A stretch of 64,000 nt of DNA from a virus, in IMG/VR virus record IMGVR_UViG_3300031857_000029. One strand, written 5' to 3'. A program made the position numbers and the translations under genes. Shown piece by piece: positions 5,473-46,815 of this stretch (position 1 is the first letter of the stretch; every line of letters begins with the position of its first letter). Below the pieces are notes generated by a model, which was not told the origin of the DNA, did not search any database, and saw only the letters and a list, made by a program, of their open reading frames with translations.

Positions 5473-6726
5473 TTATGGGCATGTACCAGTTGATACAACA
5501 GCGCCACCGTCCCAACTAATATAACCAACGCCACTTGGACCGCCTGGATCTCTGTAATATCCGGCCGATGCGTAAGTACCAGTTTTGTTACTGAATAATT
5601 GTAGTGTTCCTGCTATGGTACCTGCTCCATCGTTATAGAACACCGTAGTAGTTGTTGCAGCACATACTTCGTTGGTTGTAGCATACGGACCAATACCCGT
5701 AATAGCATATACTCTGATTATTTGTACTGCGTTTTCTAAATTATTAGTAACAACTGTACTAGTGTGCGCAGGTATGGTTGCATCTCTGAACTGTACACTA
5801 CTTTCTATATTGTACTGTGCTCCCGGCCACGACAAACTGTACAAATTTGCAGTAAGACTTGCACTGTAATATGGAAGGTTGTTTGTCGGACTAAGTGGTG
5901 GGTCCGTCACGGTCACATTTATTGTATCAATAGTTACAAGATTATCTGACCGTATTGTTTTGAAATACAGTAATGCGTCTCCTGCTCTATCTGACAAAAA
6001 TTCAGGAGTCCATTGAAGTACTACATACAATGGGTCACCTGCTTCTAAGAAAATTTTGGGAGGATTATCATTATTTGCTACCGGGAACTTATAAGTAAAA
6101 GTTTGTGGTTGACCCGGCGTAAAGTCATCCCACGCAAAATAATTTAAATCCACATCATGCCAAAGACCATGTAGTGTGCGACCCGGATTCGTTCCTAATC
6201 TGGTATACGGACTACCATCTTCAGTAAATGGTGGGGCTATCGGTGTTAGTCCACTTTTAGTTTTTTTAATAGAGGTTAAAACATTGTTAAGTGCATCACC
6301 TGCTTCGGTATACAAAGTATCACTAATGGTGCCGCCGTCGGCGGGTGAAGCTGCGGTTAAGTTACCATCATCAGTAAAGATTGATGAGGTTGGTCTTGTT
6401 CTAAAATCCGCAGGATACGCTACTCCTGGAATTGCCGTAGTTTTGTATACATTCGTCCACGACAAGTTTCCACCACCACGTGTAATGTTGTTTACATTAC
6501 CGGCGGTATTTGATTGTGGAATGATTGGACCTTGTGTCGGGTCTTTATTAACACCGTCGAGTTGTGCTTGCATGGCATTTGACAAAGCTTCTCGCTTTGT
6601 CACCAAAACCGCATTCGATGATGTAGTGGACCCAATAACTCTTCTTTCAAAAAAGTTTGCTGTTGAGGCTGTTCCTCCTAATGTGGCCTCAACTCCGTGG
6701 TCAAATCGTGCATAATATCTAGCCAT
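5473..6726 (-). CDS. hypothetical virion-associated protein
   Basis: 417 aa Thr/Gly-rich ORF preceded by late-type motif. Confidence 0.65.
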   Translation of the reverse strand: MARYYARFDHGVEATLGGTASTANFFERRVIGSTTSSNAVLVTKREALSNAMQAQLDGVNKDPTQGPIIPQSNTAGNVNNITRGGGNLSWTNVYKTTAIPGVAYPADFRTRPTSSIFTDDGNLTAASPADGGTISDTLYTEAGDALNNVLTSIKKTKSGLTPIAPPFTEDGSPYTRLGTNPGRTLHGLWHDVDLNYFAWDDFTPGQPQTFTYKFPVANNDNPPKIFLEAGDPLYVVLQWTPEFLSDRAGDALLYFKTIRSDNLVTIDTINVTVTDPPLSPTNNLPYYSASLTANLYSLSWPGAQYNIESSVQFRDATIPAHTSTVVTNNLENAVQIIRVYAITGIGPYATTNEVCAATTTTVFYNDGAGTIAGTLQLFSNKTGTYASAGYYRDPGGPSGVGYISWDGGAVVSTGTCP

Positions 6727-6800: not shown

Positions 6801-7334
6801 TTAACATGCTGATGTATCGCAAAAACCATTACAGCATGCACCAGAACAACAGGTTGAACCATCAATACAAGCGTCCCCCAGCGGAGAACACAGCGTACAG
6901 ATTTCAGTCGCAGTTATAGTACCATTAGTAAAGGTATAACAAGTTTGTCCAGAGAATGTACCACCAGAACATGCGGTTGGAGGAATAAACTTAGTGTTTA
7001 TCAAGGTAGTACATACATTATCGCCCGTATAATATAATGAATTAAAACTATATACTGAAACGTTGCAACTTACTGCACCATTACATATATTATAACAAGT
7101 GTCCCCAGTTTTACCATCTGCAAAGAACGAAGCCTTTTTACTGTGGTCGTAACTCCACCATTCACTTATTGCATCTGGATTGGTTGGTGTTGGATATGGA
7201 TTTTCACAGTTTTGAATTGGACTAAAAAACCCATCCGCTGCGCGACCAATATCAAAACCAGGCTGTGAAGGCACACCAAGTTCTATTCTTATTTGATTAA
7301 AACTAATTAAATTCCCAGTACTTGGTAATACCAT
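6801..7334 (-). CDS. Cys-rich putative fibre tip/adhesin-associated protein
   Basis: N-terminus LPSTGNLISFNQIRIELG resembles phage fibre-accessory proteins; Cys-rich C-terminus; directly follows the fibre gene. Confidence 0.6.
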   Translation of the reverse strand: MVLPSTGNLISFNQIRIELGVPSQPGFDIGRAADGFFSPIQNCENPYPTPTNPDAISEWWSYDHSKKASFFADGKTGDTCYNICNGAVSCNVSVYSFNSLYYTGDNVCTTLINTKFIPPTACSGGTFSGQTCYTFTNGTITATEICTLCSPLGDACIDGSTCCSGACCNGFCDTSAC

Positions 7335-30380: not shown

Positions 30381-30465
30381 GGACAGGTGGCAGAGTGGTC
30401 TATTGCAACGGTCTTGAAAACCGTCGAGCTGAGAGGCTCCGAGAGTTCGAATCCCTCCCTGTCCG
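30381..30465 (+). tRNA. tRNA-Ser(TGA)
   Basis: Cloverleaf, long variable arm, loop CTTGAAA. Confidence 0.95.
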
Positions 30466-32970: not shown

Positions 32971-33044
32971 GCTCTTGTGGCGTAATTGGATAGCGCAATT
33001 GATTTCTACTCAATGGGTTGGGGGTTCGAGTCCCTCCAGGAGCG
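32971..33044 (+). tRNA. tRNA-Arg(TCT)
   Basis: Loop TTTCTAC. Confidence 0.93.
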
Positions 33045-33049
33045 CTTAT

Positions 33050-35605: not shown

Positions 35606-35690
35606 GGACAGTTGGCTGAGTGGTCTAAAGCAGGAGATTACTAATCTCTCGTACCGAAAGGTACCGTGGGTTCGAATCCTACACTGTCCG
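35606..35690 (+). tRNA. tRNA-Ser(ACT), A34 anticodon
   Basis: Ser-type body (long variable arm, G73); stem GGAGA/TCTCT, loop TTACTAA. Confidence 0.9.
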
Positions 35691-35715: not shown

Positions 35716-35826
35716 ATGACAATTCGTAAATCACATTCACGTAAAATAAAGGCAAAGGGTGGCGGAACCAGACGAGTTACTGTTAAATCCGCATTTGTTA
35801 AAACTGGTAAGAAGAAACGTAAGTAA
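35716..35826 (+). CDS. small very basic peptide (36 aa)
   Basis: AGGAG RBS; MTIRKSHSRKIKAKGGGTRRVTVKSAFVKTGKKKRK. Confidence 0.6.
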   Translation: MTIRKSHSRKIKAKGGGTRRVTVKSAFVKTGKKKRK

Positions 35827-36458: not shown

Positions 36459-36532
36459 CCGCGAGTAGCTAAATGGTGAAGGCAGCCGCCTTATATGCGG
36501 AAGATATGGGGGTTCAAGTCCCTCCTCGCGGA
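36459..36532 (+). tRNA. tRNA-Ile(TAT)
   Basis: Loop CTTATAT, A73. Confidence 0.85.
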
Positions 36533-36537
36533 CTGTC

Positions 36538-41519: not shown

Positions 41520-41762
41520 ATGACAACGGTATTTGTTTTATTATTAGTAGCAGTAGCAGTTGCATTCGTACTCACCAGAAAGTCGCAACAACCACTTAAG
41601 CTTGTTGGTACTGTCAAGAAGGTTGAAGCAGCAGTAGCAAAGACACTTGATGTCAATGGTGATGGCAAAGTTGACCTTAAGGATGTTAAGGCAGCAGCAG
41701 AAGTGGTCAAGAAGGTTCGTAAACCACGTGCAAAGAAGATAACTGGTAAAAAGAAAAACTAA
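41520..41762 (+). CDS. membrane-anchored basic protein with EF-hand/dockerin-type loop
   Basis: N-terminal TM; LDVNGDGKVDLKD. Confidence 0.65.
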   Translation: MTTVFVLLLVAVAVAFVLTRKSQQPLKLVGTVKKVEAAVAKTLDVNGDGKVDLKDVKAAAEVVKKVRKPRAKKITGKKKN

Positions 41763-42379
41763 TGAAAAAACTATTAGTATTTTTCTTATTAGCACTTCCA
41801 TTACAAGCGCAGGATACCGTTCGGGTGAAACATGGCAACTATGAATCGGTATTTTCTGTGAGTAAGAGGTATCCTGTGCTTGTGGAATGGACAGTGACTC
41901 GTAGTAAGTTGGAATGTAAGAATCCAGCAAAGCGTACGGACAAGTTCCTCCCAGACCCAAACATCAAGAAAGAAAGTAATATTGATGAAGATTATGTCAA
42001 GTCTGGATTTGACCGTGGACACATCTCACCAGCCGCAGATGCACGGTGTAATGAAAAACATATGGCAGAAAGTTTCTATTTCACCAATATGGCTCCACAA
42101 TATCCTGGTTTAAATCGTGGTCAATGGAAGAACTTAGAAGAATGGACTCGTATTCTCGCTGTAGAAAATGATTCAGTCATTGTTAAGGCAGGATGTGTTG
42201 GTGAAGCACAAAAGATGAATCGTGTTGTAGTTCCTACACACTGCTGGAAAGTTATTCGTGTTAAGAATCAAACAGAAGCATATGTGTTTCCAAATGTTCC
42301 AGAACGGTCAAAGTCATTTGAAATGCACAAGGTACCGTTGGATAGTGTAAAGAAACTTACAAAGTTACCAATTAAATAA
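41762..42379 (+). CDS. secreted DNA/RNA non-specific endonuclease
   Basis: Signal peptide; FDRGH, TNMAPQ, NRGQWKNLE. Confidence 0.9.
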   Translation: MKKLLVFFLLALPLQAQDTVRVKHGNYESVFSVSKRYPVLVEWTVTRSKLECKNPAKRTDKFLPDPNIKKESNIDEDYVKSGFDRGHISPAADARCNEKHMAESFYFTNMAPQYPGLNRGQWKNLEEWTRILAVENDSVIVKAGCVGEAQKMNRVVVPTHCWKVIRVKNQTEAYVFPNVPERSKSFEMHKVPLDSVKKLTKLPIK

Positions 42380-45801: not shown

Positions 45802-46815
45802 ATGATTAAACATGCTGATGTAATTGTAGATTTACAAGCAGGTGATACGGGTAAAGGTAAGGTTGCTCATGCACTTGCTAAAAATTATGACCTGATTTTT
45901 CGGTATAACGGTGGGTCAAATGCTGGTCACACGGTGTATCACGATGGGAAGAAAGTCGTAACTCATCTTGTTCCTATTGGTGTATTGTTTGGTATTCCAA
46001 GTATTATTGGATTAGGATGTGTGGTCAATATTCCCAAGCTAATGGAAGAGATTCGTGATTTACAAGCACAAGGAATCAAGACAGACGGATTAATTTTTGT
46101 TGATAAGCGAGCACACGTAGTGTTCGGATATCATATAGATGAAGATACACGGGATTCTAAAATCGGAACAACTCGTCAAGGTATCGGTCCAGCTTATCGT
46201 GACAAGTACTCCCGTCAAGGAACACGTATTGGTGATTTGGACACAAGTTCCATAAAAGATTTTAGTGTCATTGATACTTATGAATTGTTCCACAACAAAC
46301 ACAACGATTGGCGTATCTTGTGTGAAGGGGCACAAGGATTTCAGATTGATATTGATTGGGGTGACTACCCATATGTGACAAGTTCACATTGTACTGTGGG
46401 GTCGGCAATCTTGAATGGAATTTCACCACGCCGTCTTCGTCATATCTATGGAATTATGAAGGCATACGAAACCTATTCAGGGTTCAAGACCACATTCCAA
46501 GATGAAAATGACTCAGACCTTCAAAAAATTCAAGAAGCAGGTGGTGAATTCGGTGCTACTACTGGCCGGAAGCGGAAGGTTCGTTGGTTAGATTTAGATG
46601 GCGTTATTAAAGCCGCCAATATCAATGGTGTTACCGACTTAATTATCAATAAAGCAGATATTTTGGCTCAAGTCGGTGTATTCAAATATGTCTATGGTGG
46701 AGTAGTGTACGAAGTTCTAACATTAGACGAATTCAAAGCGCAAATTAATGATATTCTATATGAGTATACCGATGTAGAAGAAATTGTATGGTCAATGACC
46801 CCGAACGGAATTTGA
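45802..46815 (+). CDS. purA: adenylosuccinate synthetase, short form
   Basis: QAGDTGKGK, GGSNAGHT, GTTRQGIGPAY, EGAQG, GATTGRKR, NKAD. Confidence 0.9.
   Translation: MIKHADVIVDLQAGDTGKGKVAHALAKNYDLIFRYNGGSNAGHTVYHDGKKVVTHLVPIGVLFGIPSIIGLGCVVNIPKLMEEIRDLQAQGIKTDGLIFVDKRAHVVFGYHIDEDTRDSKIGTTRQGIGPAYRDKYSRQGTRIGDLDTSSIKDFSVIDTYELFHNKHNDWRILCEGAQGFQIDIDWGDYPYVTSSHCTVGSAILNGISPRRLRHIYGIMKAYETYSGFKTTFQDENDSDLQKIQEAGGEFGATTGRKRKVRWLDLDGVIKAANINGVTDLIINKADILAQVGVFKYVYGGVVYEVLTLDEFKAQINDILYEYTDVEEIVWSMTPNGI

Follow-up and report, generated by a model that had tools for sequence, protein, structure and literature searches.

Results and discussion

A serine tRNA gene with an ACU anticodon in a viral tRNA array

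The window, by which we mean the whole stretch of 64,000 nucleotides of viral DNA analysed here, carries 29 tRNA genes on its plus strand between 30381 and 48490, as detected by ARAGORN. One of these is confirmed as an intact class II serine tRNA gene with an ACU anticodon (Table 1). An earlier sequence-only reading had recognized a serine-type tRNA with the loop UU-ACU-AA, and had reported that Ser(GCT) is missing from the window. The former observation is borne out by ARAGORN, Rfam and the fold. The latter holds as well, with ARAGORN recovering only Ser(tga) besides Ser(act), and no Ser(gct) gene, in the 64,000 nucleotides.

Table 1. Coordinates of the tRNA-Ser(ACU) gene and of other features of the window
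Feature	Position	Strand	Basis and remarks
tRNA-Ser(UGA)	30381..30465	+	ARAGORN; sole other serine tRNA in the window; reader of UCN codons
tRNA-Arg(UCU)	32971..33045	+	ARAGORN; reader of the AGR half of the AGN box
tRNA-Ser(ACU)	35606..35690	+	ARAGORN, Rfam RF00005, fold and relatives; 85 nt, class II, G73, CCA not encoded
Anticodon ACT (A34 C35 U36)	35640..35642	+	ARAGORN and sequence; inside the loop TTACTAA, 35638-35644
Basic micro-ORF	35716..35826	+	36 codons, 42% Lys+Arg; 25 nt after the tRNA, behind AGGAG
tRNA-Ile(UAU)	36459..36533	+	
ORF with DNA/RNA non-specific endonuclease domain	41762..42379	+	PF01223, E 2e-42
Adenylosuccinate-synthetase-family ORF	45802..46815	+	337 aa, short; Pfam PF00709, E 5e-84; PHROG 1211 'PurZ-type', E 2e-69

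The Rfam tRNA model (RF00005) scores 55.3 bits on this gene against a cut-off of 29 (E 1e-9). The sequence forms an acceptor stem of 7 bp, all of them Watson-Crick, a 3-bp D stem with GG in the D loop, a 5-bp anticodon stem (GGAGA/UCUCU) closing the 7-nt loop UUACUAA, a long variable arm made of a 4-bp stem (UACC/GGUA) plus loop, and a standard T arm with GUUCGAAUC, followed by the discriminator G73. The minimum-energy fold is the same cloverleaf (-31.5 kcal/mol, z = -3.3), and none of 200 shuffled sequences folds as well.

Class II bacterial tRNAs with G73 are serine tRNAs, whereas those for leucine and tyrosine have A73. The other identity elements of serine tRNAs, as defined by work in E. 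coli, are G2-C71, A3-U70, C11-G24 and the long variable arm, and the entire set, including the variable-arm stem, is present in this gene. Recognition by seryl-tRNA synthetase is independent of the anticodon, and charging by the host enzyme is therefore to be expected. The NCU anticodon, U36 and A37-A38 further place the gene with the AGY-type serine tRNAs; the 36-UAA-38 sequence is described as needed for t6A (PMC13276492). The gene is hence a member of the serine tRNA family by its body and identity elements, without the G34 of the canonical AGY reader tRNA-Ser(GCU): A34 is found in the window and in all versions of the clade except those of two loci, L009 and L010. The tRNA-Arg(UCU) of the same array is a likely competitor that holds AGA and AGG as arginine codons. 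In three relatives (L013, L014 and L018) an Arg(tct) gene precedes Ser(act) at a distance of 4 nt, and no tRNA-Arg(CCU) gene was detected in the window by ARAGORN.

Conservation of the gene among related phage contigs

Relatives were gathered from IMG/VR by an exact-pattern scan with position 34 left open, and by a protein search with the neighbouring 681-aa ORF. Ser(act) was found in L001-L008, L012, L013, L014 and L018, and in G004, the contig to which L011 belongs, spanning 11 metagenomes in all, while L009 and L010 are the only related loci with Ser(gct) in its place. The window's own version recurs, identical or with differences of 1-2 nt, in independent metagenome assemblies; base 35640 is therefore neither a sequencing nor an assembly error. 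The sequence-only reading had allowed for an assembly error or a singleton mutation at this base. Both are ruled out by the recurrence of Ser(act) across the 11 metagenomes, with the independent assemblies agreeing on the base and the related phages carrying several diverged versions of the gene. No close cultured relative of the window was recovered by megablast or blastn, and the best match of a structural protein is to cyanophage S-RIM32, at 43%.

A comparison of eight diverged versions revealed the pattern of constraint on the gene. In these, 97.4% of the stem cells are paired, as against 37-51% in control structures whose partners were slid sideways. Ten of the 24 stem pairs are altered on both sides, a number that none of 500 shuffles reaches, and these compensatory changes are spread over four of the five helices, the T stem having none. 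Positions 33-38 of the anticodon loop (UACUAA) are invariant in all eight versions, with position 32 being T or C, and the same invariance is seen in G1-G2-A3, in C11 and its partner G, and in G73. We conclude that the Ser(ACU) gene is intact, old and under selection.

The genomic context of the gene offers a view of its history. In L013, L014 and L018, Ser(act) fills the slot after Ile(gat)-Arg(tct) that is held by Ser(gct) in L009 and L010. In several other relatives the gene is followed, at a distance of 16-25 nt, by a 36-37-aa ORF homologous to the micro-ORF of the window (L001, at 2184-2291; L002; L004-L007; L012, at 6962-7069; and L025, at about 6340-6448 on the minus strand). These ORFs are 39-97% identical across the relatives, have no match in Pfam or PHROG, and adjoin three diverged versions of Ser(act), which points to one old locus that has kept ACU while the stems drifted. 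Among the loci sampled the micro-ORF is restricted to the window's clade and L025. We considered it as a general partner of Ser(ACU) and rejected this, with the ORF being present at 5 of 101 ACT loci and at none of 47 genome loci.

A separate observation concerns L008, whose 681-aa protein is 96% identical to that of the window, yet whose Ser(act) belongs to a different sequence version, which departs from the window's in its acceptor stem, D arm and anticodon stem and is common to L012. This case suggests that tRNA genes are exchanged among the phages of the clade with the ACU anticodon kept.

Occurrence of Ser(ACU) beyond the clade

We scanned IMG/VR with a pattern combining TACTAA, class II spacing and the GGTTCGAATCC T arm, which matched at least 119 stretches. 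Adding the genes of the clade itself brought the number of distinct Ser(act) genes confirmed by ARAGORN to at least 99. When position 34 was left open, the matches listed included 17 confirmed ACT and 78 GCT genes, or about 18% ACT, a figure that refers only to tRNAs with the scanned T arm and loop, on contigs that were not dereplicated. Ser(act) and Ser(gct) occur together in just one of 114 viral loci among the matches listed. Anticodons with A34, other than Ser(act) and those for arginine, are rare among the bystander tRNAs of the sampled loci. The gene is also present in a cultured virus, the Xanthomonas jumbo phage XaC1, where the annotation says merely "tRNA-Ser". A BLAST search of cultured phages with the tRNA of the window gave, among the matches checked, ACT in XaC1, GCT in BUCT-ZZ01 and TGA in RHph_TM30.

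The prokaryotic scan covered contigs from one genome per species and gave at least 120 matches. Genuine Ser(act) genes account for 58 of the 120 matches listed, mostly from Patescibacteria, Saccharibacteria and other MAGs, and also from Polynucleobacter. In 27 of these 58 bacterial loci, again among the matches listed, Ser(gct) lies within the same 8-kb stretch. In the bacterial MAGs (Patescibacteria, Saccharibacteria and 'uncultured Pseudomonadales'; loci L238-L357), Ser(act) usually adjoins Ser(gct) as part of clusters of serine and arginine tRNAs, whereas the phages show replacement instead. Some lone MAG matches on short contigs may be phage DNA binned into MAGs. The sequence-only reading had held Arg(ACG) to be largely the only tRNA with A34. 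This agrees with the reviews of the subject as a general statement, but understates the distribution, since phages often have Ser(ACU) and many bacterial MAGs contain it as well.

To what extent the anticodon is inherited can be judged from the tRNA tree, built with the wobble base masked. The ACT and GCT labels require 35 changes on it, against 84.6 +/- 4 when the labels are shuffled. Furthermore, the sample contains no pair of an ACT and a GCT gene that reaches 90% identity, and the GCT gene nearest to the window's tRNA is 80% identical. The clustering of the labels, combined with the lack of a close GCT partner, indicates that the ACT state is heritable and old; the tree is too short for counting its origins. 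The missing pairs at 90% identity or above also rule out a recent G34A point mutation.

The arginine tRNAs that accompany the gene were tabulated from the matches listed. Arg(tct) shows no link to Ser(act), being present at 36 of 102 ACT loci and 30 of 79 GCT loci. In the IMG/VR loci L020-L235, Arg(acg) accompanies Ser(act) far less often than Ser(gct) (6/102 vs 22/79), and Arg(cct) was seen only near Ser(gct) (0/102 vs 5/79). These differences in Arg(acg) and Arg(cct) may reflect GC content.

Codon usage and the contrast between ACU and GCU phages

Codons were counted in ORFs approximated as the longest ATG frames. In the long ORFs of the window there are 289 AGT and 70 AGC codons, an AGT share of 0.81, which makes AGY the box with the highest T share among the 16 NNY boxes, the others averaging 0.66. 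AGT is also the commonest serine codon, followed by TCA (276) and TCT (253), and Ser(ACU) and Ser(UGA) together match these three. The members of the clade with Ser(act) have AGT shares of 0.77-0.92, whereas in L009 and L010, which carry Ser(gct), the shares are 0.46-0.47, against 0.57-0.58 in their other NNY boxes. L003, a Ser(act) locus, resembles L009 and L010 in its other boxes (0.58), yet has an AGY share of 0.88. The difference in AGT share between the window and L010 is strongly supported (Fisher p = 3e-13), and at conserved AGY serines of orthologous genes an AGT in the window corresponds to an AGC in L010 11 times, as opposed to one instance of the reverse. The relationship also had predictive value: the fetched piece of L011 lacks the tRNA and has an AGT share of 0.86, from which Ser(act) was predicted, and its contig G004 does hold Ser(act). 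Conversely, G003, the 99%-complete contig of L010, has only Ser(gct) and no Ser(act). Thus, in the window's phage clade the anticodon co-varies with the choice of AGY codon.

In the wider sample of IMG/VR loci, which is not dereplicated, AGT reaches 19.0 per 1000 codons with ACT and 12.3 with GCT (p = 1e-8), while AGC is equal in the two. The excess T bias of the AGY box in this sample is +0.006 for ACT and -0.065 for GCT, a small difference (p = 0.015), and the ACT term is not significant after general T bias has been accounted for (t = 1.4). A comparison of anticodon and codon bias by phylogenetically independent pairs had only five supported pairs to draw on, too few to give it any power.

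Optimisation for AGU decoding, one of the explanations offered by the sequence-only reading, gains support from AGT being the top serine codon, from the T bias of the AGY box, and from the unbiased sister phages with Ser(GCU). However, loss of the host's tRNA-Ser(GCU) would also give an AGT bias, so codon usage does not cleanly separate decoding from evasion of a defence. In the latter case, which the sequence-only reading had raised as nuclease evasion, the host tRNA-Ser(GCU) would be cleaved or depleted, and the phage would supply a tRNA with an unrecognised anticodon and purge AGC codons that had become unreadable. Phage tRNAs have indeed been proposed to escape anticodon nucleases through changes in the loop (PMC10264068), and the replacement of GCT by ACT, with both in just one of the 114 phage loci listed, would suit such a history, as would the strong AGT bias that it likewise predicts. 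We nevertheless consider it unlikely: the published escape changes lie outside the anticodon, while here the decoding base itself differs, and Ser(gct) is presented as a tRNA that the nucleases spare in mycobacteria (PMC10264068). Moreover, the 70 AGC codons remaining in the window require a GCU-type reader, and evasion of phage defence offers no explanation for the 27 of 58 listed bacterial loci in which Ser(ACU) stands alongside Ser(GCU). We also know of no nuclease specific for tRNA-Ser(GCU).

The gene might be a tolerated, nearly neutral variant, or might serve a role outside translation, for instance as an integration site, a processing signal or a regulatory fragment, and bring no benefit in decoding. 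Drift is conceivable in that overexpression of Ser-tRNA(ACU) is harmless in E. coli (bioRxiv 10.64898/2026.05.15.725136), but we regard this account as extremely unlikely, since the anticodon shows no variation although 10 of 24 stem pairs are altered on both sides, the ACT and GCT genes cluster strongly on the tRNA tree with no GCT counterpart at 90% or more in the sample, and the anticodon tracks codon usage.

A probable dedicated reader of AGU

The explanation that we favour, and hold to be reasonably probable, is that Ser(ACU) is an AGU-specialist serine tRNA with an unmodified A34, which has co-evolved with AGU-rich coding. The following steps can be envisaged: 1) The gene would give rise to a functional serine tRNA charged by the host seryl-tRNA synthetase. 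2) A34 would most likely stay unmodified, with no conversion to inosine. 3) A34 would form a Watson-Crick pair with the third-position U of AGU, and as a result this codon would be read efficiently and almost exclusively. 4) The tRNA would replace the usual G34 (GCU) species in the phage tRNA set, fitting a genome whose commonest serine codon is AGU, from which the phage may benefit. 5) The remaining AGC codons would be left to the host tRNA-Ser(GCU). 6) AGA and AGG would remain arginine codons because the phage tRNA-Arg(UCU) and the host arginine tRNAs compete for them. This proposal leaves unexplained why A34 is common in the serine AGY box but in none of the other two-codon boxes.

Were A34 converted to inosine by the host TadA or by another deaminase, the tRNA would read AGU and AGC as a GCU tRNA does, and also AGA. 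To our knowledge, A34 of bacterial Arg(ACG) is always deaminated, and TadA must be present in the hosts of several relatives, given the Arg(acg) genes of these phages. Additionally, Phe(AAA), an A34 tRNA of a two-codon box, was reportedly deaminated in E. coli (Raval, bioRxiv 10.64898/2026.05.15.725136), and the specificity of TadA may thus be looser than assumed.

Other lines of evidence make inosine at this position very unlikely. TadA-type substrates have the loop C32-U33-A34-C35-G36-A37, and 34 of the 35 phage Arg(acg) genes seen have CUACGA/GA (CTACGAA or CTACGGA), with C32 and G36. The loop UUACUAA departs from this at positions 32 and 36 (U32 and U36), and from these features Ser(ACU) appears not to be a TadA-type substrate. 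Work in E. coli has found TadA to be very specific for the Arg2 loop, with changes at 32, 37 or 38 having blocked its action on the other anticodons tested; an orthogonal ACU tRNA read AGU, with AGC and AGA below detection and AGG read weakly, and showed no inosine by cDNA sequencing, so that even with an Arg2-type loop ACU was not deaminated (PMC11066159). Reading by inosine would also leave the box-specific avoidance of AGC without a reason. As for a phage-encoded enzyme, Pfam PF00383 gave no TadA-type gene in the contigs of five relatives, its matches being one gene each in G003 and G004 of the dCMP-deaminase/ComEB type, and a regular-expression search found no deaminase motif in the six frames of the 64,000-nt window, which is part of the genome.

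Inosine would moreover insert serine at AGA, which occurs 120 times in the window (8 per 1000 codons; the median of ACT-bearing phage loci is about 15 per 1000). In relatives, the columns of the window's AGA codons hold arginine in 57% and lysine in 15% of cases, and serine is outside the six commonest aligned residues. A recoding of AGA to serine is ruled out by this alignment. With a phage tRNA-Arg(UCU) present, a serine tRNA that read AGA through I34 would be harmful. The deliberate ambiguity at AGR codons entertained by the sequence-only reading, which had looked to AGA codons in conserved serine columns for a sign of it, gains no support from this alignment with arginine and lysine, nor from the phage's own tRNA-Arg(UCU).

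A further alternative is that serine is inserted for arginine at AGG or AGA at a low, programmed level, or that A34 carries an unknown modification with a new reading pattern. The weak reading of AGG by the engineered tRNA in E. coli (PMC11066159) would allow for it, and so would the missing tRNA-Arg(CCU) of the window and the confinement of Arg(cct) to GCT loci among the matches listed (5/79, as against 0/102 ACT loci). But AGG, with 28 occurrences in 14,902 codons, is the rarest arginine codon of the window and falls in alignment columns of R or K, ACT and GCT loci matched for GC content show no difference in how often they use it (p = 0.25), and a candidate modifying enzyme was not found in the searches for deaminases described above. 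We therefore think that either is highly improbable.

A decoder of AGU with an unmodified A34, as favoured here, would be in keeping with a bench observation: overexpressed Ser-tRNA(ACU) improved the growth of E. coli (bioRxiv 10.64898/2026.05.15.725136). It is conceivable, if distinctly unlikely, that Ser(ACU) goes beyond codon matching and makes phage translation independent of the host tRNA-Ser(GCU). The latter could be removed by a defence system or by the phage itself; alternatively, an undescribed A34 modification or a controlled insertion of serine at AGG could be at work, and the 36-aa basic micro-ORF might act with Ser(ACU) on the ribosome.

Relationship to known systems

Comparison with previously described tRNAs places Ser(ACU) as follows. 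1) With the tRNA-Ser(GCU) genes of L009 and L010 and of Synechococcus phage BUCT-ZZ01 it shares the class II body, G73, the long variable arm, U36-A37-A38 and a location in the same kind of phage tRNA array. It differs in having A34 in place of G34, with AGU expected to be read by a Watson-Crick pair and AGC probably unread. 2) With tRNA-Arg(ACG), the one A34 tRNA that is standard in bacteria, which is read as ICG after the action of TadA, it has in common a gene-encoded A34 and the A34-C35 pair of residues. The arginine tRNA, however, serves a four-codon box where I34 is safe and has the loop C32-U33-A34-C35-G36, whereas Ser(ACU) has U32 and U36 and belongs to a split box where I34 would misread AGA. 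3) It has the same anticodon as the ACU tRNAs engineered in E. coli (Schmitt et al. 2024, PMC11066159; Raval et al. 2026, bioRxiv 10.64898/2026.05.15.725136), which were active, not deaminated, selective for U over C at the third position (U3:C3 of at least 95:5) and harmless or beneficial. Those were made from a M. jannaschii Tyr body or from E. coli Ser by a G34A change, while the window has a natural and conserved phage gene. 4) The Leu(AAG) and Thr(AGU) tRNAs of Lactobacillales/Leuconostocaceae likewise have A34 for G34 in AT-rich genomes favouring U-ending codons. Unlike the split-box Ser(ACU), they belong to four-codon boxes, in which a misread codon still gives the same amino acid, and deamination occurs in some of them. 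5) Nuclease-evading phage tRNAs (van den Berg et al. 2023, PMC10264068) are similarly phage-encoded, with loops that differ from the host type. In these, though, the host anticodon is kept and neighbouring loop bases are changed, whereas in Ser(ACU) it is the wobble base that is changed, along with a shift in codon usage. Apart from position 34 its loop (UU-NCU-AA) is that of most phage Ser(gct) genes, 61 of 84 having ttgctaa.

In a survey of GtRNAdb, A34 tRNAs of two-codon boxes were sporadic and always accompanied by a G34 tRNA, and a review describes split-box A34 tRNAs as universally missing, phages included, and "prohibited" (PMC8007984). Contrary to that review, the window provides a natural and selectively maintained split-box A34 tRNA, of a kind that had to be built in E. 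coli for the study of Raval 2026 (bioRxiv 10.64898/2026.05.15.725136). In the literature searched, we found no description of a natural phage Ser(ACU). Nor is the case of the window a solitary one: among the IMG/VR matches listed, roughly every fifth or sixth serine tRNA of the AGY type has ACU. Sister genomes with either ACU or GCU amount to a natural experiment, in which AGU and AGC usage shifts in the AGY box only, and which makes testable both the reason for which cells avoid A34 and the conditions under which it pays. These tRNAs are also of relevance to annotation and to codon-usage models for phages, in which G34 is normally taken to decode AGU and AGC alike.

Other features of the window

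Some additional features of the window deserve mention in their own right. The tRNA-Ile(UAU) gene downstream of Ser(ACU) is shared with L001, L002, L004, L006-L010, L012-L014 and L018, and this anticodon, which has been counted as generally missing in prokaryotes (PMC8007984), occurs 44 times in the sampled viral loci, as against 50 occurrences of Ile(gat). The ORF with the non-specific endonuclease domain is located among unannotated ORFs downstream of the tRNA array. The short adenylosuccinate-synthetase-family ORF, which has a GH19 lysin, an amidase and a UDP-glucose-dehydrogenase-like ORF as neighbours, raises the possibility, through its PurZ-type match, of a 2-aminoadenine (Z) genome.
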